A DNA stretch of 26,789 nucleotides from a virus (taxonomy: Duplodnaviria; Heunggongvirae; Uroviricota; Caudoviricetes), in the IMG/VR virus record IMGVR_UViG_2568526722_000004, positions 1 to 26,789 of that record; one strand, written 5' to 3'. Position 1 is the stretch's first letter. Each line of letters opens with the position of its first letter. Below, in pieces: positions 1-20,838 of the stretch. The notes under the pieces were generated by a model, which made no database searches, had not been told where the DNA came from, and saw nothing but the letters and a program-made list of their open reading frames with translations. A program made the position numbers and the translations under genes.

Positions 1-588
1 GCGGCATGACGAATAAATATCGTTATTCTCCCGCTCATGTTTAGCGCCACGAAACGCCACCGCGGGAATAACAATCTGCCGGTCAAACGGCTGATCGTCA
101 TAAACCCTGACGGTAATGGTCCCTGATGGCCACCGCTCCGGTGCACGGGAGTCCCGGGGGAAAGCTTTGCCCACTGTTTTAACGAGATCGCCTTCAATCT
201 GGTTCGCAGACAGTTTTCCCAGAACCCGACAGTTTTCATTTATCGTGACATTGTTGAGCGTCCCGGCGTTCGCATTCACACTGCCACTGATATCCGCATT
301 TTTCGCCGTCAGTCGCCCGTCCGGTGTAAGGGAAAATGCAGGAGGATTACCGCCGCTGGTAATGGTGGGAGCCGTCAGATATTTCAGGAACACGGCCCGA
401 ACGGCAGGATCATCCGCCAGCGGTTGTGATGCCGCCGGAACGGCACCACTGGCGAAAGATGAATAACGTTCCGGCTCAGGCTCCAGCAAGACACGCCCCT
501 GCATAAACAAGGGCATCAGCTCTGAACCTGGTCTGAACAATACGATCCCCATACGCGGGGCAATTTCAGGGGTCAGTAGTGCTCTCAC
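1..588 (-). CDS. Phage tail host-specificity (lambda J-like) protein, partial: N-terminally truncated remnant whose C-terminus lies beyond the left window edge
   Basis: Hand translation of the minus strand gives an open frame from an in-frame stop at 619-621 to position 1 (e.g. ...[97 protein letters not shown]...), which resembles the C-terminal receptor-binding region of lambda gpJ from memory. No ATG; a GTG at 588 follows GAGGTGA. Not in the ORF track because it lacks an ATG start. Confidence 0.5.
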
Positions 589-595
589 GGTCACC

Positions 596-1393
596 TCAAT
601 GAACGGTATCGAGCAGCTTTAACAGCTCAGGGAATCGGGATTCGAAGAAATGCGGCTGCGTCTCGCGCGGATTTGCGGGACTGGTGATGTTCTTGCCGAA
701 CATGCAGCCTTTCGCCGTCAGCGACCAGAATTTTTTGATGTTGTTAATCGCTGTACGGCTGTATCGTTCGCGCTGTTCGACGATCCCCAGCTTCGCCATC
801 TGGTGATATGCCTGATTAGCCGTAAGGCGGATACCATACTGTTTCAGCAGTGCACTCAGCGACAGTGTCGGGCGACTTGAGCCATCAGGCGCGTCAGCAG
901 GAGCATCAATGGCATAGCGCGGTGCCAGATTCGGTAAGCCAACAGCCTCCTGGAGTTTCTGACAGGCCCCAAGCACAGATGAGTTAGACAGGTTTAACTC
1001 CCGGCGCATAAAGTCCAGCAGAATCACGCCAGCCTGCATCTTGTCAGCAGCCTGCCCGGATAATTTTTCCGGTGCGCTGGTTACCATATCGAAAGTACGG
1101 ATCACCTTCAGATGGAATGACGGGCTGATCCACATTGCATAGGCATACACCAGTTCTTTGCAGACATACGTCCCCTGGTTATTTCCGCCACGACTAACGT
1201 TAACTGGCTCTATATTGACCGAGTTGCAAATCTGCAACTCGCTTATTAAACGTTCGGTTTGCTCATTGCGGAGCCAGAATGCAGGCTTATGCTTATCCTG
1301 AGAACCGGCAGCCCTGTGCAGATCGTTCAGGCTGTAACGCCCATAAGCATCACGACGAACTTCAATACCATCAATGACCATCAGATTATTCAT
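596..1393 (-). CDS. KilA-N domain phage protein (antirepressor-like)
   Basis: 265-aa ORF; N-terminus [30 protein letters not shown]... is typical of KilA-N DNA-binding domains; last gene of the minus-strand early operon. Confidence 0.6.
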
Positions 1394-1412: not shown

Positions 1413-1775
1413 TCAGGCGGCTGCACCCGCCGTTTTCTCGTACTTACTGATAGTGATCTCGACCTTCCCTCCCGGGATAACCGGTCCCCACTCCACCAAC
1501 ATTCTTTTCACCTGACTGTCGTCTTCCCACACACCCGCGTGGGTCAGGGCGTCAAACAGCGCCTTGTTATAGTTGTCCAGATCGCGGATCCGGTTAGCCG
1601 TTCTGACGGTACTCATCCCCGCGCCAATCTGACGGGCAATGGTTTCAATTGATGGCCAGCACACACCTTCGTCATTACTGAAATCAGCCAGGCGGGCCAT
1701 AATTGCCACGCTGGATAATTTCATGCCTGACGCAGCGCAACCATCCCATACATAGCCGGTTAATTTAGTGCTCAT
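1413..1775 (-). CDS. Phage helix-turn-helix domain protein
   Basis: 120-aa ORF with GAGGT RBS 5 nt upstream of the ATG at 1775; winged-HTH-like segment (SVAIMARLADFSNDEGVCWPSIETIARQIGAGMSTVRTANRIRDLD). Confidence 0.5.
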   Translation of the reverse strand: MSTKLTGYVWDGCAASGMKLSSVAIMARLADFSNDEGVCWPSIETIARQIGAGMSTVRTANRIRDLDNYNKALFDALTHAGVWEDDSQVKRMLVEWGPVIPGGKVEITISKYEKTAGAAA

Positions 1776-1784
1776 GACCGACCT

Positions 1785-2123
1785 CTATTTCCCTGAATTT
1801 ACGACGAAACTGTTCGAGCGGGCTGAAGCACTCATGCTCATAGCCTTCACGGAGGTAGATAACCCGTTGTGTTTCCGGCTCCCAACGAATGACTCTGACG
1901 GGCACTCCGTAGTGATCTTTGAACCAGCGGTTAACTTGTCGCAAAGGACTGTCTCCTTCTGCCGGTTGAAATCACCCACAGCCCACTCTGCAAAGCTGTG
2001 GGTTACAATTTCCCTGTCACCTGGTACATTTACTGCATAGCAATACTCCACCTTCGCTTTTCCACCCGGTACAGGAAGCGCAATCAGTTGCGAGCGACGG
2101 TAGTGTGTTGTTAAACTGTTCAT
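1785..2123 (-). CDS. Hypothetical phage protein
   Basis: 112-aa ORF whose ATG overlaps the upstream gene's TGA (ATGA coupling at 2120-2123) and whose stop sits in the RBS of the next gene; operon context favours it over the antisense ORF 1768..2040. Confidence 0.45.
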
Positions 2124-2683
2124 GCGTTAGTTTCTCCACAGTCACGACACGCCACGGCGCCCGGAGCTGCACACTCGCGGGCGTCACTACTTTCTGAAAC
2201 GCAAAAGATTTTGTAGACCAGTGCTGCATGCTCCTGCAGCTTCGAAATTGAGAGGTACAGCTCATCGTTAATTGCTGTCTTCTCATGCGGTTCCACTACA
2301 CCGTCTTCAATTGCTGAACGAATCTGTTTTGAATAACTGCCGATCTGTTCAATGACTTCCAGCAGGCGTTGGTTGATATCGGCGTTGTCCACATCCTCGA
2401 CGTCAGGAAGAGACACAAAGACGCCATTTGCAGACTGCGCCACAGCATCAGCAATGAAGTGAGTGCCACCAGCACGCTGTAAAACCATTGCCCATCCCAG
2501 CGGGAAAATCTGATCGCCATCTGCACGAAGGCGGTTGAATAAAGCGTTTTCTGTTACATCGAGCCAGTCAGCCGCTTCAGCGTAACCACCCGGCAACGCC
2601 GCGATAGTTTTTCTGACAGCTTTCACGTACCACTCAGGCTGTTTTTCTATTTTCCAGTGATGCTTACCCACGGTTAGCCTCAT
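2120..2683 (-). CDS. Phage CII-like regulatory protein (YdaT-like)
   Basis: 187-aa ORF directly downstream of the Cro-like gene; position and composition resemble YdaT/CII-like proteins of Rac-type prophages. Confidence 0.5.
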
Positions 2684-2714: not shown

Positions 2715-2915
2715 CTAATCTTTCGGATAGATATCCGGTCTTAAGTCAGATTTCGTAATTGCACCTGACGTGCATTGCTCAAGTTTTTTAGCCAGCACAA
2801 AACTGGCTTTTTTATAGCCATTGAAAACCAGCCGTAAGTAGCCAGGTGTTGAGCCAACTTTTCCGGCCAACTCGCCCTGCTGTTCTTTGGTTAAAGAGTC
2901 CCAATACGCTTTCAT
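2715..2915 (-). CDS. Cro/YdaS-like HTH transcriptional regulator
   Basis: 66-aa protein from the internal ATG at 2915 with GGAGGT RBS (the longer 167-aa track ORF has a non-protein-like N-terminal extension); HTH segment ...ELAGKVGSTPGYLRLVFNGYKKASFVLAKKLEQCTSGAITKSDLRPD; divergent from the CI-like gene. Confidence 0.6.
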   Translation of the reverse strand: MKAYWDSLTKEQQGELAGKVGSTPGYLRLVFNGYKKASFVLAKKLEQCTSGAITKSDLRPDIYPKD

Positions 2916-3005: not shown

Positions 3006-3680
3006 ATGAAAACAATCCATGACATCCGGCGGTCTAACGCCAGAAAACTGAGAGATGGTGTTGGCGGGAATTCTTCCTTTGCCACTATGATTGATCGCGA
3101 GCCAACCCAGACCAGCAGGTTTATGGGAGATGGTGCTACTAAAAATATCGGTGACAGCATGGCACGACACATCGAAAAATGTTTCGACCTGCCTGTCGGA
3201 TGGCTCGATCAAGAACACCAGACAACGAACATCACAAAAAAACCTGATGTTTCAATCACTAATAAACAAATCACATTAGTCCCTGTCATATCATGGGTAC
3301 AGGCCGGAGCATGGAAAGAAGTTGGATATTCTGAGGTTGATTTGAGCACAGCAGAAACGTATCCCTGCCCTGTACCCTGTGGGGAAATGACTTATATCTT
3401 GCGGGTGATAGGTGATTCAATGATTGATGAGTACCGCCCGGGAGACATGATTTTTGTCGATCCTGAAGTACCTGCCTGCCACGGTGACGACGTTATTGCA
3501 TTGATGCACGATACAGGCGAAACCACCTTCAAAAGGTTGATAGAAGATGGGACACAGCGTTATCTCAAAGCGTTAAACCCAAACTGGCCTGAGCCTTACA
3601 TTAAGATCAACGGTAATTGCTCTATAATTGGTACAGTGATTTTCTCAGGAAAACCAAGAAGATACAAAATCAAAGCCTAA
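3006..3680 (+). CDS. CI-like phage repressor with LexA/S24 peptidase C-terminal domain
   Basis: 224-aa ORF; C-terminal ...YILRVIGDSMIDEYRPGDMIFVDPEV... has the GDSM serine motif of the S24 (LexA/CI) autopeptidase family; divergent from the Cro-like gene; followed by a terminator. Confidence 0.75.
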   Translation: MKTIHDIRRSNARKLRDGVGGNSSFATMIDREPTQTSRFMGDGATKNIGDSMARHIEKCFDLPVGWLDQEHQTTNITKKPDVSITNKQITLVPVISWVQAGAWKEVGYSEVDLSTAETYPCPVPCGEMTYILRVIGDSMIDEYRPGDMIFVDPEVPACHGDDVIALMHDTGETTFKRLIEDGTQRYLKALNPNWPEPYIKINGNCSIIGTVIFSGKPRRYKIKA

Positions 3681-7570: not shown

Positions 7571-7920
7571 TGGAGCCATACAGCCTCACACTCGATGAGG
7601 CCTGTCATTTTCTCAAGATATCCAGACCGACTGCCATTAACTGGATACGCACAGGGCGTCTTCAGGCAACACGCAAAGATCCCACTAAGAATAAATCTCC
7701 TTACCTCACAACACGACAAGCCTGCATTGCGGCTCTTCAGTCTCCGCTGCATACTGTCCAGGTGAGCGCGGGTGATGGCATAACAGAGGAAAGAAAATGT
7801 CACTCTTCCGCAGAGGTGAAATATGGTACGCCAGTTTCACATTGCCGAACGGTAAAAGATTTAAACAGTCTCTTGGAACAAAGGACAAAAGGCAGGCGAC
7901 AGAACTCCATGACAAGCTAA
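7570..7920 (+). CDS. Excisionase-like HTH protein (Xis/AlpA-type)
   Basis: ATG at 7570 with AGGTGA RBS; N-terminal [31 protein letters not shown] is an excisionase-type HTH; sits directly upstream of the integrase; the frame stays open to 7920, overlapping int by 124 nt, so the 3' end is uncertain. Confidence 0.5.
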
Positions 7921-8960
7921 AGGCTGAAGCATGGCGGGTCAGCAAACTTGGTGAAATACCTGATATAACGTTCGAGGAAGCGTGTGTCAGGTGGCTTGAA
8001 GAGAAAGCACATAAAAAATCACTGGACGATGACAAAAGCCGGATCGGATTCTGGCTTCAACATTTCGCAGGAATGCAACTAAGAGACATTACTGAATCAA
8101 AAATTTATTCAGCAATGCAGAAAATGACGAACCGGCGTCATGAGGAAAACTGGAAACTCAGGGCAGAAGCATGCAGAAAAAAAGGGAAACCTGTTCCAGA
8201 ATACACGCCAAAACCAGCGTCCGTTGCAACGAAGGCTACGCATCTTTCATTTATAAAGGCCCTACTAAGAGCCGCAGAGCGTGAATGGAAAATGCTGGAT
8301 AAGGCACCAATTATTAAAGTGCCCCAACCAAAGAATAAACGGATCCGCTGGCTGGAGCCCCATGAAGCACAAAGGCTGATTGATGAATGTCCGGAGCCAT
8401 TAAAGTCTGTTGTTGAATTTGCACTGGCAACAGGCCTAAGACGCTCGAACATCATCAACCTTGAATGGCAACAAATAGATATGCAGCGCCGGGTGGCATG
8501 GATAAACCCGGAAGAGAGTAAATCAAACCGCGCAATTGGCGTTGCGCTGAATGATACTGCATGTCGCGTATTGAAAAAACAAATCGGGAATCATCACCGT
8601 TGGGTATTTGTGTACAAGGAAAGCTGTACCAAACCAGACGGAACGAAAGCGCCAACAGTCAGGAAGATGCGGTATGACGCAAACACAGCCTGGAAAGCGG
8701 CGCTGAGACGGACTGGTATTGATGATTTCAGATTTCACGACTTGAGACACACCTGGGCAAGTTGGCTGGTTCAAGCCGGAGTCCCGTTGTCAGTGTTACA
8801 GGAAATGGGAGGCTGGGAGTCTATCGAAATGGTTCGTCGATATGCTCACCTTGCACCTAATCACCTTACCGAACACGCACGGCAAATAGACTCGATCCTA
8901 AACCCATCGGTCCCAAATTTGTCCCAGTCAAAAAATAAGGAAGGTACTAATGATGTGTAA
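7797..8960 (+). CDS. Tyrosine recombinase, lambdoid phage integrase
   Basis: 387-aa ORF; N-terminus [14 protein letters not shown]... (arm-binding type); C-terminal catalytic region ...[40 protein letters not shown] with the conserved HxxR and Tyr motif; ends 13 nt before a copy of the thrW 3' end. Confidence 0.85.
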
Positions 8961-8972
8961 CTTATTGATTTA

Positions 8973-8990
8973 AATGGTGCGATAATAGGA
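8973..8990. repeat. att core repeat (copy of the thrW 3' end): attR of element A and attL of element B
   Basis: AATGGTGCGATAATAGGA matches 25344-25362 AATGGTGCCGATAATAGGA (18/19, one C missing), same orientation. Confidence 0.7.
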
Positions 8991-9049
8991 ACAAATCAAA
9001 CCACATAACCAATTGATTTCTATTATATTTTTATGTTTTAGTTTTCAAC

Positions 9050-9070
9050 ATACCCCCAAAAGTACCCCCA
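9050..9070. repeat. 21-bp repeat ATACCCCCAAAAGTACCCCCA (candidate integrase arm-type site), copy 1
   Basis: Exact 21-bp direct repeat of 25211-25231; contains an internal TACCCCCA duplication; lies about 60 bp inside the left att core. Confidence 0.6.
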
Positions 9071-9307
9071 TAAGCGCCTGTATGATTAGACTCCGGGAAA
9101 AACATAAAAGCTATTCATTTAAGAGCTTTATGTCTTCATTCACTTTGTCAATTAAGAAAGATATCCAAACGAATAAAATTTCAATTTATTGAAGGCCATG
9201 TCATGTTTTCTATTTCTACAGTTTAAAAGTTTTATCATAACCTTCTGTTAGAACAGAATTAATTAGCAAAAAAACCCCAAGGGCATGAGGTTTTTTATTT
9301 TCCATTG

Positions 9308-10288
9308 TCATGCTAAAGCTCGAGCTACATTTTCTTTGATCGCAATAGCACAAGGAGTTTTGAACTTTTCTTTGCAACAGTGTAATAGCGTATTAATATT
9401 CAAATCAGTTTCAAGAATATTTTTTAGCTCACTCTTTCTTTCCGAGATTAAGGTTGGTTTATCTTTGCATTGTTTGACTATTAAGGCAGTTTCATTAATA
9501 TTCAATTGCTCTATCAATGATTTTATGACAGGCATGACAACTCTATCAGCTAAAAAATGACCATTGATATATTGATAGGCGTTATCTTCTCTCAATCCTT
9601 TATCATATAACTGCTCATAGAATTTATCAGCATCGTATTCATCTTGAATAAGGTTATCAAGTTTTTCTTCAATAACCGCTTTAGATTGCTGCATACTTTC
9701 AAATACAGCATTTTTGATAACAAATTGGTTCGTTAATCGTGGCACAGAAGGAGCAATCGCTTCATGGAAAACTGAGTCATCAAGTCTAACTTGATGCTGT
9801 TTAAGCAATAAAAATTTCTTCAGCACGGGGTAGATCAACCGTGAATACTCTGTAATGTATGCTGTAAAATCGAATTTAATTTCAGTAGCGATCTTTATTT
9901 GAGAAAGACAATACTCAAGGACTTCATGGTGTAACTCGATGCTCTCTTTTGAATATACAAATGTTTGAAAAATAAACTTGTTACTGCAAATTATCTCTGA
10001 GTCTGTACTGTTTTTAGGGCATAAATAATCAAAATCACTATCCATTGCAAATATGGCATATCGATTTGCTCGGCTCATGAATTTTTTTAATACTGGTTTC
10101 CCTTTTGTTCCTTTATTGGTAGGGTTACAAATATCAAAACGTATATCATTATCTTTATCGTTTAATAAGCCTTCCCAGAAAGAAATGTCTTTTAGACCTT
10201 CAACAAAGACAAAGCCATTGTGTCCAGCCATAATACAATATACCTGAAGATATTCTTCGCTAAAATTAATATCCTCAAACTCAGTCAT
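9308..10288 (-). CDS. ariB: AriB-like DUF4435/Toprim protein (PARIS defense system effector)
   Basis: 326-aa ORF overlapping the upstream ATPase gene by 8 nt; N-terminal Toprim-like features (MAGHNGFVFVEGLKD..., acidic AIFAMDSDFDY); low GC; the pairing with an ABC-type ATPase is the PARIS (AriA/AriB) architecture. Confidence 0.6.
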   Translation of the reverse strand: MTEFEDINFSEEYLQVYCIMAGHNGFVFVEGLKDISFWEGLLNDKDNDIRFDICNPTNKGTKGKPVLKKFMSRANRYAIFAMDSDFDYLCPKNSTDSEIICSNKFIFQTFVYSKESIELHHEVLEYCLSQIKIATEIKFDFTAYITEYSRLIYPVLKKFLLLKQHQVRLDDSVFHEAIAPSVPRLTNQFVIKNAVFESMQQSKAVIEEKLDNLIQDEYDADKFYEQLYDKGLREDNAYQYINGHFLADRVVMPVIKSLIEQLNINETALIVKQCKDKPTLISERKSELKNILETDLNINTLLHCCKEKFKTPCAIAIKENVARALA

Positions 10289-11276
10289 GAGAAGATTCCT
10301 TTGAAATATTTTTTATATCTACGAAAGAATCCATCCAGCCTTTCATTAATATTGCAGGACTATGAGTAACAATAATTAACTGACAATTATCGTTAATTGA
10401 TTTGATGGTGCTTATTAATCTTTCTTGCCACGTAAGGTGCAAGGATATTTCTGGCTCATCCATCAACAAGACAGATTCATCCAATGAAGTATTAGCTGTT
10501 TTAATCAGAATATATAACAACTGACGTTCACCTGATGAAAGAAGATTATACCTAATATCTTCACCAGAATCACTCATCTTAATAGAAATGTTACCATTAC
10601 TAAAAGAAACAACTTTGTTACATTCAGCAAATAAATTATTTATAGCTGATTCCAACTTATCCTTTATGAGAATACCTTTAGACTCACTTACTTTGAAAGT
10701 ATTCTTTAACCTTTCTAATTCACCAGCAATTTCCATATCAAGAATTGTGGTGCGCTCACCATCACTTTTTTTGAATTCATAGATGGAATTGGCACTCATA
10801 TTGATAGTTGATATTAACTCAACATTTATTCGCTTAGTGTTTTTAATATTATCACTTACGCTAACAGTTCCCATCCCGAACTCTTTAATTTCAGTGTCTT
10901 CTTTTTTCGATTCAAGCAACTCAATAAGTTCATTTAACTCCTTTATTTCCTTACCCTTTGATTTACCTTTAATACTGTTTTTCTTAAGGTTATTAAGTAG
11001 GTTTAGAAGCTGGACAGAGTCAATTTCGCGAAAATTAACTTTGTGAGTAATTGTGCCTCCATTGGCCAATGTTATTTGAGCCAACGCAGCATTACTTAAA
11101 CTTTCATTTAATTCTTGTTTTAAGAGGGCAAAAACACTTTGAATTATCGTGCTCTTACCTGAGCCATTTTTACCCACTAAAACATTCACATCTTTTAAAC
11201 TCCAATCAATGTCCTTCCGTTTAAAAAGACCTTTGATTGCTATATTTTTGATTATCGTCGCCACTCTCGTATCCAT
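10281..11276 (-). CDS. ariA: AriA-like ABC/AAA_15-21 ATPase (PARIS defense system sensor)
   Basis: 331-aa ORF; Walker A GKNGSGKST, signature-like LSSGERQLL, Walker B LLMDEPE, H-loop IIVTHS; low GC. Confidence 0.65.
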   Translation of the reverse strand: MDTRVATIIKNIAIKGLFKRKDIDWSLKDVNVLVGKNGSGKSTIIQSVFALLKQELNESLSNAALAQITLANGGTITHKVNFREIDSVQLLNLLNNLKKNSIKGKSKGKEIKELNELIELLESKKEDTEIKEFGMGTVSVSDNIKNTKRINVELISTINMSANSIYEFKKSDGERTTILDMEIAGELERLKNTFKVSESKGILIKDKLESAINNLFAECNKVVSFSNGNISIKMSDSGEDIRYNLLSSGERQLLYILIKTANTSLDESVLLMDEPEISLHLTWQERLISTIKSINDNCQLIIVTHSPAILMKGWMDSFVDIKNISKESSHD

Positions 11277-11653
11277 TATTATGAAAGTTGAAATGATTAT
11301 AACATGCTTAGCGTGCGCTTGGCATCTACCCTACAGTTGTTAGCAATAAACTTTATAACACAATGTAACACATTGAATTTAAACACTTAATATCAAATCC
11401 AACGCTAAACATCACGGAACCTGAAAGACTCTTGGCATTCTAGTTAGTACCTACTACGAAACGTTTTGAAAGGTTAAAGTGGACAGTCCGCATCAACTGT
11501 AACTTAAAATGCTCAGTAACGATGCATCTGCATGATTTGCAAAGTATGACAGAACTTCATTTGATGCTTTCACAAATGCGTGCCTGAAGTTTTCTAAAGC
11601 GGCGCGGTTAACTCTTTCTGGCTCAAAACCTTAATAAATCTGTATATCGCGGG

Positions 11654-11880
11654 TTGACACACTTGACACTTTTTCGGGAAAAACCTTAACAAAACTTAAC
11701 CTCCCCTGGCATTTCTAAGCATGGCAACTTGACACTTTTCGCGATTTTTTCGGCTTTTTGACGTGGTAAATCTGGCGAAAGGCCAGTAATGGCGCGGCTT
11801 ACAGCGAGGTTGACACTTTTTCGCGTTCAGAGTGTAAAGTGTCAACCTGGCAAGCTGCTCAACTTGACACTTTTTGATGT
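11654..11880. repeat. Array of TTGACAC(T)TTTT direct repeats plus one inverted copy
   Basis: GTTGACACACTTGACACTTTTTCGGG (~11654-11680), AACTTGACACTTTTCGCG (~11727), GGTTGACACTTTTTCGCG (~11808), inverted AGTGTAAAGTGTCAACC (~11831), AACTTGACACTTTTTGATG (~11862); immediately 3' of the 175-aa HTH gene. Confidence 0.55.
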
Positions 11881-12407
11881 CATTGATGGTCTGATTTTTC
11901 CCATTCAGCTAGGGCGTTTAGCCCGGCTTCACTCCATGATTCCAGTTCATCGGCATAATCACCTGCAACATAGCAGAGTTCGCAACGCAGCATACGAATT
12001 GCCAGCCTGGCATTACCTCGCAAATTGTATTTTTCAAAGTAATGCTGCCCTTCATCATCCTCAAGGCAGATAGCACCATCATCAAGAAAGTGCACTTCCC
12101 AGCCTAATTCCCCGGCTGCATCCAGCACACGCTGCTGTATGCCCTCGTCCGTTGCTGGCGCAGGAATTTTACCGCCTCTGGCCTTAACTGCTTTCCAGAA
12201 CTCGCCCCACGTCATTTCCAGCGTTCTTTCTGGCCACATTTCAGAAATGGTGTCTTTCCCCTGTGCTGGTGGGCTGTTCCGCTGCTCTGTCGCTTCCACA
12301 TCAATTTTTTTGCCAGACATGATCACTTCGCCTTTCTCGATCCAGTCGTAAACTGTCTGGCGGCTTACGCCTTTGTATTTGGCGTATTCGGCTTTACTCA
12401 TCAACAT
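11880..12407 (-). CDS. HTH-domain protein with terminase-small-subunit (Nu1)-like N-terminus; possible packaging or regulatory role
   Basis: 175-aa protein from the ATG at 12407 (GAGGTGA RBS 5 nt upstream); N-terminal MLMSKAEYAKYKGVSRQTVYDWIEKGEV resembles the winged-HTH of small terminase/Nu1-type proteins; the track's longer 202-aa form is an unlikely N-terminal extension. Confidence 0.5.
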   Translation of the reverse strand: MLMSKAEYAKYKGVSRQTVYDWIEKGEVIMSGKKIDVEATEQRNSPPAQGKDTISEMWPERTLEMTWGEFWKAVKARGGKIPAPATDEGIQQRVLDAAGELGWEVHFLDDGAICLEDDEGQHYFEKYNLRGNARLAIRMLRCELCYVAGDYADELESWSEAGLNALAEWEKSDHQ

Positions 12408-12506
12408 GTAGCTCACCTCATGCATATACGATAAAAAATAATTTAATGCGAAAAGGGAATGCGTTGTGGGTATGGAGGAAAGGGGCAATAACCGCCCCTT
12501 ACTGAT

Positions 12507-12779
12507 TCAGTTGCGCCAGGATGGCTGGCTAAGCGTGGTTTTCATTACATCATTGACGACCTGCTTTACGATTTCTGTGTTGGCAGTCGTGCTTTCAACA
12601 TCAACAAAGCCATAATCGCCAATTTCCACCGTCAGGGATTCCAGTTTCTTCCCCAGTGCATCAGGCAACTCTCCACTGAACCGGTGCCGAAGATTTTCCA
12701 CCAGCAAAGCCCTGAATGCCTCGCTGTTCTCTTTTTTCTGCCATAGCTGGCGTTTATCCACTCTGATATTTAATTTCAC
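12507..12779 (-). CDS. Hypothetical protein (90 aa)
   Basis: GTG start at 12779 overlapping the upstream stop (GTGA) and preceded by GAGGTGAGG; second gene of a three-gene operon. Confidence 0.45.
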   Translation of the reverse strand: MKLNIRVDKRQLWQKKENSEAFRALLVENLRHRFSGELPDALGKKLESLTVEIGDYGFVDVESTTANTEIVKQVVNDVMKTTLSQPSWRN

Positions 12780-12943
12780 AGCCTCACCTCTTTAAGTGCC
12801 TTATCCATCAGTTGCCGGGCAATAACATGAATCGACGGTGCCACACCAAGCACAGATTTCTGACGCTTTTCGGCCTGGATACGTTGCAGGGCTTCGATCT
12901 GCCCCCGGGAAAGTAAAACTGGCTTTACTCCGTGATTTTTCAT
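12776..12943 (-). CDS. Small putative DNA-binding protein (55 aa)
   Basis: ATG at 12943 with AAGGGA RBS; MKNHGVKPVLLSRGQIEALQRIQAEKRQKSVLGVAPSIHVIARQLMDKALKEVRL; palindromic operators lie just upstream; the track ORF 12776..13099 has a junk-like N-terminal extension. Confidence 0.45.
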   Translation of the reverse strand: MKNHGVKPVLLSRGQIEALQRIQAEKRQKSVLGVAPSIHVIARQLMDKALKEVRL

Positions 12944-12962
12944 GATGATCCCTTCTGAATGA

Positions 12963-13019
12963 CAATAATTGCAATTATTGCACAAATTGAAATAATACCA
13001 TCGATAATTGCAATAAATG
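12963..13019. promoter_or_regulatory. Palindromic operator candidates upstream of the 55-aa gene
   Basis: Perfect 18-bp palindrome CAATAATTGCAATTATTG (12963-12980) and related GATAATTGCAATAAATG (13003-13019) in an AT-rich region 20-80 bp upstream of the start at 12943. Confidence 0.5.
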
Positions 13020-13221
13020 AAACAAAAAGCATCAATAAACCAACCTTCGGCACTAAATGCTCTGATTTTTCTGCAAAGGTATGGCAGATGTTGCTGCATG
13101 CAAACATAAAGGAAATAGCAGAAGAAACAGCGGGGAGTGAAAAGGGGAAGTTTTTATAAATACACGATTGTCGCCTCACTGCAGGTTAACAGCCACAAAC
13201 CCCATGATAATAACTTGTTAA

Positions 13222-13545
13222 TTATTTCATCAGATTTTTCATTATTTGCGCGATTGAGTACACAAGCAAAAACTCGGCAGCCGCAAGAGTATAAAAAACA
13301 TAGATTCGCTTAGCCCACCGACGATGAAAGAACTCCTCAGCATGGCCGAATGTTCGAGATACAAGCCATGCACCTACTGCACACAGAGCAGGTGCAATGA
13401 GCACAGTTATAAACCAGATTGTGATGCCCATCCCATGCCTACTGATAATAGCCATTGGTATTGCAAAAATGAATGTTAGAGCAGCATTAGCTAATAGAAT
13501 ATCTTTTAAAGTATTTTCAATTAGTTTTTCTAGATTATCTTTCAT
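13222..13545 (-). CDS. Small integral membrane protein (about 3 TM helices)
   Basis: 107-aa ORF with hydrophobic segments (LLANAALTFIFAIPMAIISR, ITIWFITVLIAPALCAVGAWLV, IYVFYTLAAAEFLLVYSIAQI); AT-rich; directly downstream of the lipoprotein gene. Confidence 0.55.
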   Translation of the reverse strand: MKDNLEKLIENTLKDILLANAALTFIFAIPMAIISRHGMGITIWFITVLIAPALCAVGAWLVSRTFGHAEEFFHRRWAKRIYVFYTLAAAEFLLVYSIAQIMKNLMK

Positions 13546-13570
13546 CTAATCCCCCCCGTTGAACATTAAT

Positions 13571-13595
13571 ATATAAAAGCCCCTTACTAAGGGGC
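13571..13595 (-). terminator. Intergenic stem-loop with U-run between the lipoprotein and membrane-protein genes (terminator or attenuator)
   Basis: On the minus strand GCCCCT-UAGUA-AGGGGC followed by UUUUAUAUAUU; lies in the 64-bp gap between the two genes. Confidence 0.5.
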
Positions 13596-13609
13596 TTTGC
13601 ACGGATTGT

Positions 13610-14752
13610 TTAAAGGGAACTTTTTTTCGCCCCTTCAATTTCTTCCTGACAAATTTCGTCATTTGTAAATGAGTACTGCAGATAGACATATCCCTGAGTG
13701 GAATTGTTCGCTCTGGCCTCAATAGAGATAGTATCGATATTGTTTTTTAATGGTATTTCTTTTGTTCCCTTCCATGTGGCAGATAAGAAGCGTTCTTTTT
13801 TGTTTAGCCCCCTCATCCAGTCCTGAGGATCTTTCCAAATTGAACCAGCCAGCAAAAAGTCTGTAGTATCAGCCTTTCCATACAGAGAACTTAAAGAATT
13901 ACTCAATTCTTCAAACTTGGATTTAAGAGCCAATCCATAGCTATCAGTATCAATATTTTTTCCTAAAGCCCGTATTTGACATAAACCAGCTTTCGGGGAG
14001 ATCAACAAACCATACATTTCAAAATCTGCGTTTTGCTTCGGTAATTTATCAGAAGTATACAGATTCACACTGTCTGGTAGTGGCTTGAGCTTAGCACCGA
14101 TCATATCTTCGATGTTTTTCTGTGTAAGACCGGCTTCTAAGCCAAACGGACCATCCGCTGGCGGGAGTAAAGGAAGTTGCCCTTGGGAATTTTTGGCTGT
14201 TACTTCCGTTTCAGTACTGTTTTTTGCGTCATTATCTTGTACTGATGCCAGCTTAACTTCAGCGAGGCCATACTTGGCTGTGAGGTACTTTTGCTGCAAC
14301 ATTGCCATGGTCTGCTCTTCAGTGGCAACAGTAGATAATTTTAGTACCTTTATCAGACCACCACTATACTGACGAGCATCAGCTTTGGCTTCGTTGATTT
14401 TTGCATCTAAGCTGTCAATTTCAGTTTTAATTGAAGCCGCAAGCTCAGGATCAGGTTTTACTCCAGATACAACAACATCAATTTTGGCACCTGATTCAAT
14501 AGCATTAATACGCTGTTCCAAAAGCGCTTTATTAGTTCCTAATATTTCCAGTCTTGCTGTTGTCAGATTTTTTATCAACCCACCAGAAAACTGCTGGTCA
14601 ACTTCCTTAGCTGCTGATATTTCACCTTCCGTTTGCGACAGTTCAGCTTTAAGAGCCGCTACTTCCTGTTTCTGTTCTGGAGTTAACTCTTCTGGCCCAC
14701 ATCCGGTTAACATTACTATACCGACTAATGTTGCAATTAAAGTTTTATTCAT
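13610..14752 (-). CDS. Lipoprotein with internal tandem repeat, unknown function
   Basis: 380-aa ORF; signal peptide with lipobox (MNKTLIATLVGIVMLTGCG); two related ~55-aa repeats (…QQFSGGLIKNLTTARLEILGT… and …RQYSGGLIKVLKLSTVATEEQ…); AT-rich. Confidence 0.6.
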   Translation of the reverse strand: MNKTLIATLVGIVMLTGCGPEELTPEQKQEVAALKAELSQTEGEISAAKEVDQQFSGGLIKNLTTARLEILGTNKALLEQRINAIESGAKIDVVVSGVKPDPELAASIKTEIDSLDAKINEAKADARQYSGGLIKVLKLSTVATEEQTMAMLQQKYLTAKYGLAEVKLASVQDNDAKNSTETEVTAKNSQGQLPLLPPADGPFGLEAGLTQKNIEDMIGAKLKPLPDSVNLYTSDKLPKQNADFEMYGLLISPKAGLCQIRALGKNIDTDSYGLALKSKFEELSNSLSSLYGKADTTDFLLAGSIWKDPQDWMRGLNKKERFLSATWKGTKEIPLKNNIDTISIEARANNSTQGYVYLQYSFTNDEICQEEIEGAKKSSL

Positions 14753-14929
14753 ATCCCTATTCCAAATGAAAATATTCAGATTAATCTTATCAGGAACCCA
14801 GATGCAATTGAATATTCATCTGCTCAGCAACGTAGTAGATTTCCTCAGAAAGCATCAACAAAAAACCAAGAGAATCCCATCCTCTGTTACTGACTACAAT
14901 TGTTCTTTTTTTGGTATTTCCTGAATGCC

Positions 14930-15175
14930 TCACCATTGAGCTGATGTAATCCCATCCCGGCATGTGCCCGGCTGATGGTTTCGCGCATCTCCCCCGAAAT
15001 TATCCTGCCTTGCTGGTGGGCGTGCTGCCTTGTGGATACATTCCGCGCGACGTTTTGCCGCCTGTTCCCGTGCCTTGTCATCATTCGCCAGCATGATGAC
15101 CTCAGCCCACCGCGCCGCCGCTCTCCGGTACAGACCACGCGCTTCCAGTGCTTCCGCTTTGCTGTCGTGAATCAT
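14930..15175 (-). CDS. PerC-family transcriptional regulator-like protein
   Basis: 81-aa ORF with ATGA overlap to the upstream gene; MIHDSKAEALEARGLYRRAAARWAEVIM... resembles PerC/Pch-type proteins. Confidence 0.5.
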   Translation of the reverse strand: MIHDSKAEALEARGLYRRAAARWAEVIMLANDDKAREQAAKRRAECIHKAARPPARQDNFGGDARNHQPGTCRDGITSAQW

Positions 15176-15684
15176 GCGCCTATTGTCTCCTTTGCTGCCC
15201 GGCGCTGGCGTTTGCGCTTCTCATTCAGCGCCACCAGCCGCGTTTCTGCGTCCTGTTGTTCCTGTGGTGTCACCTCGCCGCACGGCTGGCCTTTCAGGTC
15301 GTAGCGTACCCCACCAGCCATTAAGGCGCGGTAATAGTGCGGACACTGCGCATAAGATGCCAGCGTCGCACGCAATGCCCCTGGCCCGAATGCCAGCCCC
15401 CTGACGGCGAGATCCTGCATCAGGTCGTCGAATATCCCCACCTTAAGCGGCTTCGGTGCTTCCCGGCTGAATAAGTCAGGCCACAACTCAGTGAGGCGGT
15501 TAACGCGCCTGCGGTTTTTGCGCTGGCGTTTGGTCATATGCCGCCACGGTGTCGCCCCTGTGGGCTTTTGCTGCGCTTTCTGGTTACCGGGCATCACTTT
15601 ATGCGCCGATGTGGTTTTATGATCTTACCCAGCAATAGTGGACACGCGGCTAAGTGAGTAAACTCTCAGTCAGAGGTGACTCAC

Positions 15685-15984
15685 ATGACAAAAACAGTAT
15701 CAACCAGTAAAAAACCCCGTAAACAGCATTCGCCTGAATTTCGCAGTGAAGCCCTGAAGCTTGCTGAACGCATCGGTGTTACTGCCGCAGCCCGTGAACT
15801 CAGCCTGTATGAATCACAACTCTACAACTGGCGCAGTAAACAGCAAAATCAGCAGACGTCTTCTGAACGTGAACTGGAGATGTCTACCGAGATTGCACGT
15901 CTCAAACGCCAGCTGGCAGAACGGGATGAAGAGCTGGCTATCCTCCAAAAGGCCGCGACATACTTCGCGAAGCGCCTGAAATGA
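15685..15984 (+). CDS. insE: IS3 transposase OrfA (InsE)
   Basis: 99-aa product [32 protein letters not shown]... with AGGTGA RBS; matches IS3 InsE from memory. Confidence 0.9.
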
Positions 15985-16847
15985 AGTATGTCTTTATTGA
16001 AAAACATCAGGCTGAGTTCAGCATCAAAGCAATGTGCCGCGTGCTCCGGGTGGCCCGCAGCGGCTGGTATACGTGGTGTCAGCGGCGGACAAGGATAAGC
16101 ACGCGTCAGCAGTTCCGCCAACACTGCGACAGCGTTGTCCTCGCGGCTTTTACCCGGTCAAAACAGCGTTACGGTGCCCCACGCCTGACGGATGAACTGC
16201 GTGCTCAGGGTTACCCCTTTAACGTAAAAACCGTGGCGGCAAGCCTGCGCCGTCAGGGACTGAGGGCAAAGGCCTCCCGGAAGTTCAGCCCGGTCAGCTA
16301 CCGCGCACACGGCCTGCCTGTGTCAGAAAATCTGTTGGAGCAGGATTTTTACGCCAGTGGCCCGAACCAGAAGTGGGCAGGAGACATCACGTACTTACGT
16401 ACAGATGAAGGCTGGCTGTATCTGGCAGTGGTCATTGACCTGTGGTCACGTGCCGTTATTGGCTGGTCAATGTCGCCACGCATGACGGCGCAACTGGCCT
16501 GCGATGCCCTGCAGATGGCGCTGTGGCGGCGTAAGAGGCCCCGGAACGTTATCGTTCACACGGACCGTGGAGGCCAGTACTGTTCAGCAGATTATCAGGC
16601 GCAACTGAAGCGGCATAATCTGCGTGGAAGTATGAGCGCAAAAGGTTGCTGCTACGATAATGCCTGCGTGGAAAGCTTCTTTCATTCGCTGAAAGTGGAA
16701 TGTATCCATGGAGAACACTTTATCAGCCGGGAAATAATGCGGGCAACGGTGTTTAATTATATCGAATGTGATTACAATCGGTGGCGGCGGCACAGTTGGT
16801 GTGGCGGCCTCAGTCCGGAACAATTTGAAAACAAGAACCTCGCTTAG
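15981..16847 (+). CDS. insF: IS3 transposase OrfB (InsF), DDE catalytic domain; expressed as OrfAB by -1 frameshift
   Basis: 288-aa ORF overlapping the orfA stop (ATGA); DDE-type integrase core (…HTDRGGQY…, …[11 protein letters not shown]…). Confidence 0.9.
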
Positions 16848-16982
16848 GCCTGTGTCCATATTACGTGGGTAGGATCATTATCCTGCTCCTGCGCCGCCTG
16901 CGTCGTTTTCTGCGGCGTGCCGTAAATGCCTTTCGGTTTTCTGTTAATGGTCAGCTTAGTCATGCTTTGCCCCATCGTTACA

Positions 16983-17316
16983 ACTGTCTACCAACTGTCT
17001 ACCGATATAATTGTTTGATTTATTTAATGTTATTAATACATAACAAAAAAACAATCTGCAAACTGTCTACCAACTCTCTACAGTATTAATACATTGATAA
17101 TTAATGACTTTTACTAAATGGTAGACAGTGTAGATAGTTAAAAGAAAAATTTTAAAAATGAACCCATAACTATCTATTTTTAGATACCCCCGTGGTTTAG
17201 AAATATAAAATAAACTGTCCACCTCTCTACCACATTAAAAATACCTATATAATTCAAAACATTAATTAGTAGATGGTTGGTAGAGGGTTAAGTGTATCTG
17301 TCTACCAACCGTCTAC
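16983..17316. repeat. Iteron-like repeat array in AT-rich DNA downstream of the primase gene (candidate replication origin)
   Basis: CTGTCTACCAACTGTCTACC (16983-17002), CTGTCTACCAACTCTCTAC (17063-17081), inverted GGTAGACAGTGTAGATAG (~17120), CTGTCCACCTCTCTACCAC (~17215), inverted GGTTGGTAGAGGG (~17276), CTGTCTACCAACCGTCTAC (17298-17316). Confidence 0.6.
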
Positions 17317-17344
17317 TTTTAAGTTTCAACTTATAAATTTCGTA

Positions 17345-19150
17345 TCATGTTCTGTCGTTAATGCCTGCCGTTGCTGGTAACCATCCATCAGCATCTTTAT
17401 CTAACAGAACATTTGTGATCGTTCGCCCTTTATCTGGACCTTTAGTGCATTTAGCCCGCTTGTACTCCTTTCCGTACTCAGCCATTGCCCCTGGCATATC
17501 TGTACCAAAGCGTGTCAGTGATACCGGTTTTCCCAGACCATGCGCAGACATATAAGCCAAATAAGCATGATACAGATATCGCCTCGGACTAAATGGCACT
17601 ATTTCTGCATTACCTACTATCATTCCCTCACATTTAACCAACGACATCAGATAACCGCAGAAGTCCACCAGCGAATCACCTTCACGCTTTATCAACAGTG
17701 CTTCTTCTGATTTTTGCTGCTCATAAAGTAGTCTTTTCGCTTCGTCCTGGTCGGCAAATCGTGTAAGCAAATGGCGAATCACTACTGCCAGTTCCCCTTC
17801 TATCTTTTTCGCCAGCATCGGATCGCGTTCGTTCTCTGGTACAACCTCAGAGAAATTAAATATTACTCGTCGACGCGAGATCCCCCCACTACGGTCGCTG
17901 AATGACATGGCATAATTGTTTACTGCCAGCACTACCGCAGGAACGCGCGTGGAATAGGGCGCTTTGTGTTTCGGATCGATAGCCACCTTGTCACCGCCTG
18001 TAATGGCCTTAATCCCAGCACCATCACCTGCGTAGCGGGTCATGTCAGGCATGATAATCAGAGAATATCCCACCACTAACGCTCGTTCCCTCGCGTCTTC
18101 CAGCGCCTTCATGCTCGCCGATACTGTATTGGCCTTACCCGCCAGCATGGTACAAATCTCCGCCATCACACTTTTACCGCTTCCGCCCGGCCCCGTTACC
18201 TCAAGGAATAACTGCCAGTCGTACCGGTTCGCCAGTACCATGAATAATGCCGCCAGTACGCGATCCGCTTTACGAGCATTATCCGCCACCGAACGACGCA
18301 ACCACTTCCAGAAATTCGGCGCATGTGTTGCCAGCGTTTCCCCCTCTTCTGGCGGGCTGAACGGTAATTCACTGGCATTTAACAACCAGTCATTTTTGTT
18401 GTGTTCCCGAAAATTTCCTGTCCTGATATCAAAAACACCGTTACTGAACCCAATAAGATTTCTGTCCGCTCCCCCCATAACAGGTAGACTCAATTTCATT
18501 GTCTCTACGGCAAATTTAATGGCGTTTTGCGAATAACTAATTTCGGCATCAATAAAAATCTTCGCCATAGACCGCTGGAGTTCCTTATCAGATACAGGCT
18601 CCCAAACAATTCCGTTGTAATGGTGAACTACATCAGAATCATCATTTATCGCCAGTGCTCCTCCATAATGTTCAAGTAACACTTCCCCTCTCTGGCTGGC
18701 TCCCATCTGATTTAATGCAGGCTTGGGTAGACCACTATTTTTTGTAGCTAATTTCATCACTGAAACTTCCCCGTGCTCAGCCTGTTCGCGGATCCGTTGC
18801 AGGTAGTCGCGCCAGTTCTCCGGTTCCTGGTCGGTGATACCTTTGTATAATTTCGCCTCCTGTACGCCAGCCAGCGCCAGCTTTTCAGCGATAGTATTGA
18901 TCTGGATTGGCTCTATCTCCCCCGCGATATAGACACGCGCAAAACGGCGTTTCTCGTCAATAATGCGGATATTCGCCAGGTCTGCCAGTTGCTTTGGCCC
19001 CAGGTAAACAGGAGGCACGTTATCGCCGTGTTTTCGTCCTTCACTTTCAATCCAGTGTTGAGCATGGGCGTAAGCATCCATCCCGGCAAAAATGATTACC
19101 TCAGTGAATTTATCCTTCGGCTGATATTTTAGACTCGGTGCGTTTTTCAC
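17345..19150 (-). CDS. Replication primase/helicase-like protein (P4 alpha / D5-type SF3 NTPase family)
   Basis: 601-aa ORF; Walker A in ...LEVTGPGGSGKSVMAE...; last gene of a tightly coupled operon; followed by the iteron array. Confidence 0.7.
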   Translation of the reverse strand: MKNAPSLKYQPKDKFTEVIIFAGMDAYAHAQHWIESEGRKHGDNVPPVYLGPKQLADLANIRIIDEKRRFARVYIAGEIEPIQINTIAEKLALAGVQEAKLYKGITDQEPENWRDYLQRIREQAEHGEVSVMKLATKNSGLPKPALNQMGASQRGEVLLEHYGGALAINDDSDVVHHYNGIVWEPVSDKELQRSMAKIFIDAEISYSQNAIKFAVETMKLSLPVMGGADRNLIGFSNGVFDIRTGNFREHNKNDWLLNASELPFSPPEEGETLATHAPNFWKWLRRSVADNARKADRVLAALFMVLANRYDWQLFLEVTGPGGSGKSVMAEICTMLAGKANTVSASMKALEDARERALVVGYSLIIMPDMTRYAGDGAGIKAITGGDKVAIDPKHKAPYSTRVPAVVLAVNNYAMSFSDRSGGISRRRVIFNFSEVVPENERDPMLAKKIEGELAVVIRHLLTRFADQDEAKRLLYEQQKSEEALLIKREGDSLVDFCGYLMSLVKCEGMIVGNAEIVPFSPRRYLYHAYLAYMSAHGLGKPVSLTRFGTDMPGAMAEYGKEYKRAKCTKGPDKGRTITNVLLDKDADGWLPATAGINDRT

Positions 19151-19437
19151 TTCTTACCTCCCGCAACCAACATTGCCCGGATTTTTTTAATATTCGTGGC
19201 TGCACGTCTCGCCACTGCCTGTTGTTTGTTTTCCACCACAATAAAATCACGATCAAACTGACGGCGCGGCATTACGCAGTCATATTCGTAAGCCTCACGG
19301 CGGTAGGTGATATTGCCTGGCGTAACGTGACGAATAACCACCCGTCCCCCGCGTCTGGTGTCCCGGAAAATATCACCGGGGCGGATTTCAGGCCGAGAGA
19401 GGCCGCTGGCAGTAAAGCCAGAATTTTTCTTTTTCAT
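19147..19437 (-). CDS. Hypothetical protein (replication operon)
   Basis: 96-aa ORF whose stop overlaps the primase start (ATGA). Confidence 0.45.
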   Translation of the reverse strand: MKKKNSGFTASGLSRPEIRPGDIFRDTRRGGRVVIRHVTPGNITYRREAYEYDCVMPRRQFDRDFIVVENKQQAVARRAATNIKKIRAMLVAGGKK

Positions 19438-19441
19438 GGTT

Positions 19442-19642
19442 TTATTTTCCTGTCAGCAGTTCCGGTTTTATTTCCGCACGAATACAAAGTTCAGAAAAAA
19501 ATTCAGGAGAACCAACAATCTCATTACTTTTCAGTCGGCATTGTGATTTCACTTTCCCTTTATCCAGGTAAACCAGTACGCGTCCGGTGAAATCATCTGG
19601 CACATTAAGCACTACGGGTACATGCGCTTCATGATTATGCAT
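19442..19642 (-). CDS. Hypothetical protein (replication operon)
   Basis: 66-aa ORF; start overlaps the upstream stop by 8 nt. Confidence 0.4.
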   Translation of the reverse strand: MHNHEAHVPVVLNVPDDFTGRVLVYLDKGKVKSQCRLKSNEIVGSPEFFSELCIRAEIKPELLTGK

Positions 19643-19868
19643 GGCTTACATCCTCCGTGAATTTTCTTCTGTAACGCGTCTCTGCCACATATTCCGCATA
19701 GTCCGACGCAATACTAAGAATCATTTCACCCTCTGACTTGTAGCCACTGGTATTGATAAGAAAATATGCAGCTTTCATCATGTCAGCAACGCTCAACAAT
19801 GCGCCCGCTGCATCTTCCGGTGCGCCATCAAATTCCCGTTTCAGGGAATTAAAACGATCATCACGCAT
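19635..19868 (-). CDS. Hypothetical protein (replication operon)
   Basis: 77-aa ORF; start overlaps the upstream stop by 8 nt. Confidence 0.4.
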   Translation of the reverse strand: MRDDRFNSLKREFDGAPEDAAGALLSVADMMKAAYFLINTSGYKSEGEMILSIASDYAEYVAETRYRRKFTEDVSHA

Positions 19869-20226
19869 GTTTACCCCCCTGAATGACCTGATAACCGCAA
19901 CTGGTCAGCAACTCGATAAATTCCGGCAGTGTGCCGAAACAGCAATCATCACGCAGCCGTTCGCGGGATACTTCAACGCCGTTTTCGTAGTGACTCACCA
20001 TACGCCCGGTAAAATGCAGATCATCATCGTGATGGCTCGTTGACGGCTTAATCAGTCGCGCACGTTCCGCCAGTTCCAGCAATGCTTCAACGCTTCCGGC
20101 AATTGCACCATCCGGCAGGTGGTAATTACGCACTATGCGCCCGTTCTCCACATTGACCAGCAACTGCCCGGTAAATTTCTCGTCAAACTGAATGCTGTTA
20201 AGGTCAGAAATTGACAGGTTATGCAT
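19861..20226 (-). CDS. Hypothetical protein (replication operon)
   Basis: 121-aa protein from the second ATG (20226), which has a perfect AGGAGG RBS 6 nt upstream; the track start at 20244 is less likely. Confidence 0.45.
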   Translation of the reverse strand: MHNLSISDLNSIQFDEKFTGQLLVNVENGRIVRNYHLPDGAIAGSVEALLELAERARLIKPSTSHHDDDLHFTGRMVSHYENGVEVSRERLRDDCCFGTLPEFIELLTSCGYQVIQGGKHA

Positions 20227-20443
20227 GGTGCACCTCCTGCACATCAGCCATGATAATTTTTCCGGCCTTATCCAGTGCCTGATCGGCTTTTAGCTGCACA
20301 AATGCTAAATAATGGGAGATGCATTCTGATTCTCTGGCTGCGTGTTTATGCGCCACACCAGCGATAGCAGAAATCTCAATAAGTGAATCCATCAGCGTTT
20401 TGATAGCGTCTACCGCTGCATCAGGCCATGTTGCATTACACAT
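20219..20443 (-). CDS. Hypothetical protein (replication operon)
   Basis: 74-aa ORF; start overlaps the upstream stop by 8 nt. Confidence 0.4.
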   Translation of the reverse strand: MCNATWPDAAVDAIKTLMDSLIEISAIAGVAHKHAARESECISHYLAFVQLKADQALDKAGKIIMADVQEVHHA

Positions 20444-20639
20444 GTTCCACCTCCTGGCGAATACGGGCGGCGAATACCATCACGCAGCCATCAGGAGATT
20501 GCTGGCGTGCTTCCTGTTCGCTGGTGGCCTCGATGTGAATTACGCGCGGTTGTGCCGTGCTCAGGGCGATAAAACGCCAGATGTATTTATTCAGGTTGTG
20601 CGAGTCCCGCCCTTGCGGGTGTGTGGTATGATTTCTCAT
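20436..20639 (-). CDS. Hypothetical protein, first gene of the replication operon
   Basis: 67-aa product from the ATG at 20639 with GAGGT RBS, just downstream of the operator region; it is the plausible C-terminal segment of the 435-aa track ORF. Confidence 0.4.
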   Translation of the reverse strand: MRNHTTHPQGRDSHNLNKYIWRFIALSTAQPRVIHIEATSEQEARQQSPDGCVMVFAARIRQEVEHV

Positions 20640-20789: not shown

Positions 20790-20838
20790 TATTTTTTTTC
20801 CTGCATACTGCATTTGTTTTTTGTAAGGGGTACACAAC

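Follow-up and report, generated by a model that had tools for sequence, protein, structure and literature searches.

The closest described relatives of the locus analyzed here are two tail-tip proteins and one decayed prophage. The proteins are gpJ of phage lambda (PDB 8iyk, 8xcj and 8xck) and A8 gpJ (PDB 9wca/9wcb), the latter a natural gpJ variant from an Escherichia coli prophage with OmpC as its receptor (Brodel et al. 2024, PMC11338833). The prophage is the Rac cryptic prophage of E. coli K-12 (ynaA-lomR-stfR), in which a large deletion of late genes put lom, stf and tfa by earlier genes and left a chimeric open reading frame (ORF) at the joint. Here we analyzed a 26,789-nucleotide stretch of viral DNA (IMG/VR record IMGVR_UViG_2568526722_000004; "the window" refers to this whole stretch), at the left end of which the 3′ part of a lambda-type tail-tip gene J (J′) is fused to the first 67 codons of an early gene of the DUF968 family (DUF968′), next to a KilA-N domain gene. 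Window 1-594 is very probably the scar of one large deletion in a lambda-type siphovirus prophage at thrW of E. coli BIDMC 37.

A deletion joint between DUF968 and J

A three-way alignment of the window, DUF968 and gpJ placed the switch between the parents within CGTGTTC (window 388-394). DUF968 homology ends at window 387 and gpJ homology begins at 394. The stretch shared with the DUF968 allele of E. coli MY1-8 is 8 bp long (CGTGTTCC, window 387-394), versus 7 bp with the allele of H1, a relative with the same immunity region as the window element. Both parents read Val-Phe at this point in the same frame (..A V F R.. in DUF968 and ..D V F L.. in J), so that the fusion is in-frame. The 67 residues encoded by DUF968′ are identical to the N terminus of the MY1-8 DUF968 protein, and codon 68 onward corresponds to residue 958 onward of the 1,159-residue J. 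On one side of the joint, the counterpart of window 387/388-3000 is the early-right region of e14/lambda-like prophages, where KilA-N is followed by a gene for a 329-residue DUF968 protein. On the other side, many E. coli genomes carry an annotated gpJ whose 3′ part shows 100% identity to window 1-394, as does the J segment of MY1-8 (L013 40377-40770).

The intact comparator was the prophage of E. coli MY1-8 (NZ_CP122517.1, 1.143-1.183 Mb; L013 in our coordinates). Its genes run in the order ymfL, DUF4222, helix-turn-helix (HTH) initiator, PerC, LexA DNA-binding-domain (LexA-DBD) gene, RusA, KilA-N, DUF968, Q and lysis, followed by Nu1/A-type terminase, portal, head, tail, gpJ, lom, stf (S74), a tfa remnant and GIY-YIG. 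Copies of CGTGTTC(C) lie at L013 16827 in DUF968 and at 40377 in gpJ. The distance between them is 23,550 bp; around this gap, the window and the MY1-8 prophage are collinear. The locus thus carries the marks of a microhomology deletion, namely a short direct repeat at both sites, a single retained copy and no added bases. Given the gene order of the intact comparator and the two repeat sites, a simple intra-prophage deletion explains the joint. Illegitimate recombination between the 7-8-bp CGTGTTC(C) copies, at codons 65-68 of the nin-region DUF968 gene and codons 955-958 of gpJ, very probably removed about 23.5 kb, comprising the DUF968 domain, antiterminator Q, lysis, cos/terminase, head and all tail genes through J residue 957. 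The result is a 269-codon in-frame ORF, DUF968(1-67)::J(958-1159), under the GTG and Shine-Dalgarno (SD) sequence of DUF968 itself, coupled to the KilA-N stop. Neither the cos/terminase region nor the rest of the deleted DNA had a match in the window, in L003, a contig that continues beyond the left end of the window, or in L015, a contig from a diverged second lineage (GCA_035821995.1).

The frame is open on the minus strand from window 618 down to position 1 and exits the left end of the window. It seems to run off there because of a scaffold gap: the window matches scaffold KI535406.1 of E. coli BIDMC 37 (GCA_000492275.1) at 100% identity, and in this scaffold an 859-N gap begins 2 nucleotides past window position 1. 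The window covers 196 of the 269 codons of the chimeric ORF, and the last 73 fall in the gap. In the sibling contig L004 the full ORF has 269 codons and closes at the native J stop, which lies 219 nucleotides left of the window and is followed in sibling assemblies by a strong terminator-like hairpin and then lom; in L015, the chimeric ORF is followed by lom plus an stf of 1112+ residues. At the other end, the upstream in-frame stop (619-621) sits within the 3′ end of KilA-N, 7 codons ahead of the KilA-N stop (596-598). The first start codons of the frame are GTG 594 and GTG 588, the latter being the annotated RefSeq start of the homologous DUF968 gene and the former an alternative. The GAGG element (Table 1) and the GTG are the native translational-coupling signal of the DUF968 gene. 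Public annotation of the chimera is misleading ("DUF3672 / fibronectin type III protein" or "hypothetical, partial"). A 116-residue ORF with an ATG start also runs antisense to J′ (window 116-466, plus strand), wholly inside conserved J coding sequence; no sign that it is a gene was encountered, and none was looked for.

The J-derived part and its receptor-binding domain

In the 269-residue ORF of L004, chimera residues 64-268 align with residues 926-1131 of lambda J (E = 4e-64). The best solved-structure match for the J′ part is A8 gpJ (9wca; E = 3.5e-86, 291.8 bits). The Pfam domain Ig_GpJ_C (PF12421) is complete in the same ORF (E = 1.1e-39, model positions 1-135 of 135), and within the window merely its first ~58 residues are present, the remainder lying in the scaffold gap of the source. 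According to the domain scheme of lambda J (PMC11101478), the retained piece corresponds to the lower central straight fiber and the whole Ig-like receptor-binding domain (RBD). The portion removed, J residues 1-957, holds the hub, fibronectin type III (FNIII) domains, alpha-helical shaft and upper fiber, and Pfam found no DUF1983, FNIII or hub domains on the chimera. Nor did the chimera score as a member of the DUF968 family (PF06147): the DUF968/HNHc domain, residues 160-326 of the 329-residue parent, is lost, and only residues 1-67 are retained. Compared with the context of J in lambda, lom and stf are present downstream (L004 and L015), and upstream, where lambda has the tail assembly genes L, K and I, KilA-N stands in place of gpI. 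As judged from domain content, the chimera is a gene fragment and not a functional J. The relation to A8 gpJ suggests that the remnant RBD is of an OmpC-recognizing rather than a LamB type.

Another J C-terminal remnant from E. coli was encountered in a 236-residue ORF (P0002; UIU89458.1 / MCD3847089.1). It carries an unrelated 11-residue N terminus, with the joint ~23 residues further upstream in J, and shows that J 3′ fragments recur as prophage scars.

The first-pass annotation of the window had described a minus-strand frame with J-like C-terminal sequence and had taken a truncated J beside early genes as the mark of a large deletion in a cryptic lambdoid prophage. Both points are borne out, by the lambda J and Ig_GpJ_C matches and by collinearity with MY1-8 around the 23,550-bp gap, respectively. 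A lack of similarity to tail or host-specificity proteins was the outcome that it had named as refuting; similarity was found to lambda J, A8 gpJ and Ig_GpJ_C, and the reading stands; the leftward extension that it proposed reached the stop, the terminator and lom. The details at the right-hand end need correction. The frame and its J-like part had been said to begin at a stop three codons past KilA-N, but that stop lies inside KilA-N, and J starts only at the joint, ~200 nucleotides into the ORF. The GTG with a strong ribosome-binding site that had been placed at the junction is the native DUF968 start, away from the joint. The product that it held could still be expressed would include the receptor-binding end of J, as part of a chimera and not as a bare J fragment. 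Finally, replication, lysis, head and proximal tail genes were said to be missing in between; lysis, head and proximal tail genes are indeed absent there and no replication gene is intact, but a 60-codon initiator stub survives, fused to rusA.

A second deletion and a recurrent rusA endpoint

Compared with MY1-8 and H1, a further 1.78 kb is missing from the early-right region, comprising the rest of the initiator, PerC/yfdN, the LexA-DBD gene and the 5′ part of rusA. This 1.78-kb deletion joins HTH_36 initiator codons 1-60 in-frame to RusA codons 68-129, and the resulting HTH_36::RusA chimera appears in public records as "RusA family crossover junction endodeoxyribonuclease". In both the window lineage and the L015 lineage, the truncated rusA (rusA′) begins at the same nucleotide, between TA and ACCGGATCC, in the loop of a CCGG-ATAA-CCGG hairpin (window 1595-1600; L015 8990-8997), whereas its left partner differs, being the HTH gene in the former and a Rha gene in the latter. 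A third, different HTH′::rusA′ joint is present in strain W13-16 (L016 5940-6304). Deletions from the initiator region to rusA thus seem to have occurred repeatedly in this group of phages. The idea that the shared rusA′ endpoint stems from a mobile module or from relocated DNA was rejected, as the deleted segments are not found elsewhere in the window, L003 or L015.

Distribution of the joint

The KilA-N/J′ arrangement was recovered in independent NCBI, Logan and ENA assemblies by exact-protein look-ups with the neighboring 120-residue ORF, and all of the contigs reaching the joint (7/7) were collinear with the window. The identical joint is present in GCA_000492275.1, GCA_032660465.1, GCA_000356045.2, GCA_014423805.1, Logan SRR850816 and SRR446716 and one ENA metagenome, and also in the diverged second lineage (L015). 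It was absent from 5,426 complete E. coli genomes (RefSeq) and was not found among GTDB species representatives or JGI metagenome contigs; after these null searches, prevalence was judged solely via the exact-protein index, which has about 20-30 contigs with the joint. The protein cluster of the chimera has 8 members only, and a homology search with the chimera returned ordinary J fragments alone and no further chimera family. The rarity of the joint fits a recent, lineage-restricted accident.

A joint that is seen in no complete genome, in a window that ends 2 nucleotides before a scaffold gap and in a species with a median of 3 J-like sequences per genome, might be expected from an assembler that mis-joined a multi-copy J at a contig end to the early region. 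The recovery of the identical joint in separate NCBI, Logan and ENA assemblies, and in the diverged GCA_035821995.1, speaks against such an artifact, as does the 8-bp overlap at the joint, which is far under assembler k-mer sizes. The artifact explanation is effectively refuted, and we assign it practically no likelihood.

Origin of the joint and alternative explanations

Several observations weigh against a single intra-prophage deletion followed by inert decay. The direct ancestor was not found: MY1-8 differs in immunity and is ~96% identical in KilA-N/DUF968, and, as it is only a cousin, the 23.5-kb figure is an estimate based on its architecture. H1, which has the same immunity, carries myovirus-type late genes and no J. 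The intactness of the ORF in BIDMC 37 itself is assumed, being taken over from sibling assemblies. In addition, the same DUF968′::J′ joint is found in L015 (9196-14878) with flanks that are ~4% diverged, and the chimeric ORF is intact there with mostly synonymous differences. The L015 pattern could hint that selection maintains the ORF instead of its decaying inertly, or that the site is a recurrent hot spot.

A different origin of the joint would be illegitimate recombination of one prophage with another, or of a resident prophage with an infecting phage, that brought together an e14/SfV-like element at thrW and a Rac- or lambda-like donor of J-lom-stf. H1 has sheath, baseplate and pinE genes instead of J, and a Rac-type prophage at ttcA carries a J with 100% identity to the J segment of the window. 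The MY1-8 prophage, however, is a single intact prophage with the required order and an equally identical J segment, and the far end of the window element in L003 (S74 fiber, tfa remnant and GIY-YIG) matches its architecture. Both parts of the chimera are also oriented as in a simple deletion, and lambdoid mosaicism accounts for H1 sharing the early region only. We therefore consider an exchange between prophages distinctly unlikely as the source of the joint. As individual parents, H1 was ruled out by its sheath/baseplate/pinE myovirus-type late genes and lack of J, and H26, the Rac-type prophage with the identical J segment, by its unrelated early region.

The second lineage bears on whether the joint arose once. 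L015 has a different background: its integrase is of the P4 type and lies beside a HAD hydrolase gene, its repressor/cro differs, and it carries a Rha/Ash gene. Between the window and L015 there are 28 synonymous and 3 non-synonymous codon differences in KilA-N, 3 and 0 in DUF968′, and 21 and 7 in J′, respectively. Identical joints could have arisen independently in the two lineages at a structural hot spot, through hairpin-promoted slippage. The ~4% divergence of the flanks, DUF968′ parts that are different natural alleles, and the nearby example of rusA′, which 1 kb away has the same start nucleotide with two left partners, point in this direction. A DNA hairpin is also predicted at the J breakpoint, which falls in its apical part (z = -2.26, 3/200 shuffles); this lends weak support. 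The fold on the DUF968 side, by contrast, is not unusual (z = -0.18). In the intact relative, early-right genes share 1,521 other 8-mer pairs with tail genes, so that a single origin, with later allele exchange involving other resident prophages, is favored. The rusA′ endpoint common to both lineages likewise argues for common ancestry of the rusA′-KilA-N-chimera block and later allele exchange. Independent origin of the two joints is thus unlikely, although a structural hot spot for these deletions is possible.

Expression and possible function

No strong terminator-like site was found on the ORF strand between the ymfT/cro-like gene and the chimeric ORF. The chimera could be transcribed only as the tail of the repressor-controlled early-right operon, and its native coupled start, together with the lack of a strong terminator-like site, means that it could be made upon inactivation of the LexA-family repressor (3006-3680). 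On these sequence features, expression of the chimera is plausible. The product would be a cytoplasmic protein without any of the J domains that anchor in the tail. As the parts for tail mounting and the lysis genes are missing, the chimeric ORF is most likely an inert by-product of decay, and its DNA may at most take part in homologous allele exchange with other lambdoid J genes.

We also weighed whether the ORF, or the J′-lom-stf cassette, has been kept as useful, either as an SOS-induced protein with an OmpC-type RBD or as a reservoir for host-range recombination. The ORF is intact at 269 residues in two lineages that differ at 31 chimera codons, 24 of them synonymous. It retains a native SD and start coupled to KilA-N as well as a complete RBD whose closest solved relative, A8 gpJ, recognizes OmpC (PMC11338833), and the patchy, clustered differences on the J side resemble allele exchange with other J genes. 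Import of functional J, DUF968 and KilA-N alleles is, however, equally expected to produce the synonymous excess. The protein has no signal peptide and no J parts for tail incorporation, and lysis genes for its release are missing. The joint is also rare (0/5,426 complete genomes; an 8-member cluster), and a recombination substrate needs no ORF, hence a reservoir role leaves the fusion unexplained. A useful ORF or cassette is accordingly judged highly unlikely. In its fullest form, DUF968(1-67)::J(958-1159) would be a maintained SOS-inducible gene or cassette, with the OmpC-type module made as a soluble trimer or donated to incoming lambdoid phages; this version is more doubtful still. If it were true, the presence of the joint in two ~4%-diverged lineages, with the ORF intact in both, would mean selection, or a sequence-directed recurrent deletion that turns whole prophages into tail-tip cassettes time and again.

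The remaining prophage and the neighboring island

The features of the window are collected in Table 1. The element has the composition of a cryptic lambdoid prophage: integrase, repressor, cro-like gene, ymfL and KilA-N are kept, the initiator is truncated, and everything from Q through J residue 957 is gone relative to MY1-8. From this gene content, the element would be unable to replicate, lyse, package or build particles. A P4-like or phage-inducible chromosomal island (PICI)-like satellite does not match this composition, as cos/terminase had no match in the window, L003 or L015 and no satellite-type genes were found between the integrase and J′. Past the scaffold gap, L003 (12637-15300) carries the C terminus of an S74-peptidase tail fiber, a tfa remnant and a LEM-3-like GIY-YIG gene, and the far end of the element thereby fits the MY1-8 architecture. 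This end is then cut by IS3 beside ykgO/ykgM/eaeH, and attR (the thrW core copy) was not found at the far end in L003.

Table 1. Coordinates of the scar, the remaining prophage genes and the neighboring island in the window
Feature	Position	Strand	Basis and remarks
J′ (3′ part of lambda-type tail-tip gene J)	1..394	-	Chimera residues 66-196 = J residues 956-1086 of 1159-residue J; continues left to residue 269 in siblings
DUF968′ (first 67 codons)	387..588	-	Alignment to H1; blast to L013 16028-16834; RefSeq start in relatives
Deletion joint, one retained CGTGTTC(C) copy	387..394	-	Three-way alignment window/DUF968/gpJ; both copies in L013
Shine-Dalgarno GAGG	594..597	-	5 nucleotides upstream of GTG 588; overlaps KilA-N stop codon (596-598); read from sequence
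KilA-N domain gene, intact, 265 residues	596..1393	-	ORF list; Pfam KilA-N E = 3.8e-27; RefSeq annotation in relatives
HTH_36::RusA chimera, 120 residues	1413..1775	-	Joint 1595-1600; blast to L013; Pfam HTH_36 and RusA on one protein
DUF4222-like or 112-residue ORF	1765..2123	-	ORF list; L003 gene calls; RefSeq names in H1
ymfL (Phage_CP76)	2120..2671/2683	-	ORF list; L003 gene calls and Pfam; H1 RefSeq name
ymfT, Cro/YdaS-like early regulator heading rightward operon	2715..2915	-	Gene call L003 8861-9061; H1 RefSeq name
ymfK-type LexA-family (Peptidase_S24) repressor, intact, 224 residues	3006..3680	+	ORF list; Pfam; H1 RefSeq name
Prophage tyrosine integrase, 387 residues, attL-side end	7797..8960	+	ORF list; Pfam Phage_integrase; abuts thrW-proA in L004-L006
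Imperfect thrW 3′ end copy (att core), prophage/island boundary	8972..8990	.	19-bp overlap of two alignments, blast L004 vs window; partner 25344-25362
Island AriA/AriB pair	10281-11276 and 9308-10288		PADLOC E = 2.6e-43 and 3.6e-22
Island DNA-primase-family gene	17345-19150		
Island int-alpA small RNA	23853-23920		
Island integrase	23965-25179		

Between the integrase of the cryptic prophage and thrW lies a 16.35-kb island (window 8991-25343). Imperfect att repeats flank it (8972-8990 and 25344-25362), and the sibling contigs (L004-L006) lack it, their prophage integrase abutting thrW-proA. The island looks like a P4-like satellite with a PARIS-type defense system, integrated in tandem, and is a separate element from the J′-bearing remnant.

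Significance and comparison with known systems

The locus is a clean, fully mapped case of prophage decay: microhomology deletions occurred twice, removing 23.5 kb and 1.78 kb, and in both cases an in-frame chimeric ORF remained. Recognizing the scar prevents the ORF from being mistaken for a novel protein or for a gene with a tail or host-specificity role. The joint shared by two backgrounds and the recurrent rusA hairpin-loop endpoint are relevant to hot spots of illegitimate recombination and to the exchange of alleles between resident prophages.

Among intact systems, the MY1-8 prophage shares with the window element the early-right order, the N-terminal 67 residues of DUF968, the J segment at 100% and the lom/stf(S74)/GIY-YIG end. 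Unlike the window element it is complete, with replication, Q, lysis, packaging, head and tail genes present, and it has another repressor/cro, another integration site and another KilA-N allele (269 residues). The nin-region DUF968 (PF06147) proteins have the same start codon, SD and first 67 residues as the chimera, in which their domain is deleted. With lambda gpJ the chimera has in common the lower straight fiber and Ig-like RBD, as well as the native J stop and terminator followed by lom and stf in the same downstream order; unlike lambda gpJ, it opens with 67 residues of an unrelated early protein and cannot enter the tail. A8 gpJ is the closest solved relative of the J′ part, which differs from it by several substitutions and a short indel in the RBD region of the alignment. 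The ynaA gene of K-12 Rac was rejected as an equivalent J remnant, being a tape-measure fragment with no significant similarity to the chimera: the piece retained at the Rac scar is the N terminus of the tape-measure gene running into lom, and no J sequence is left. The DUF968′::J′ scar, like that of Rac, came from loss of late genes and is a new instance of a well-known type of feature, a product of ordinary prophage decay and not a new system.

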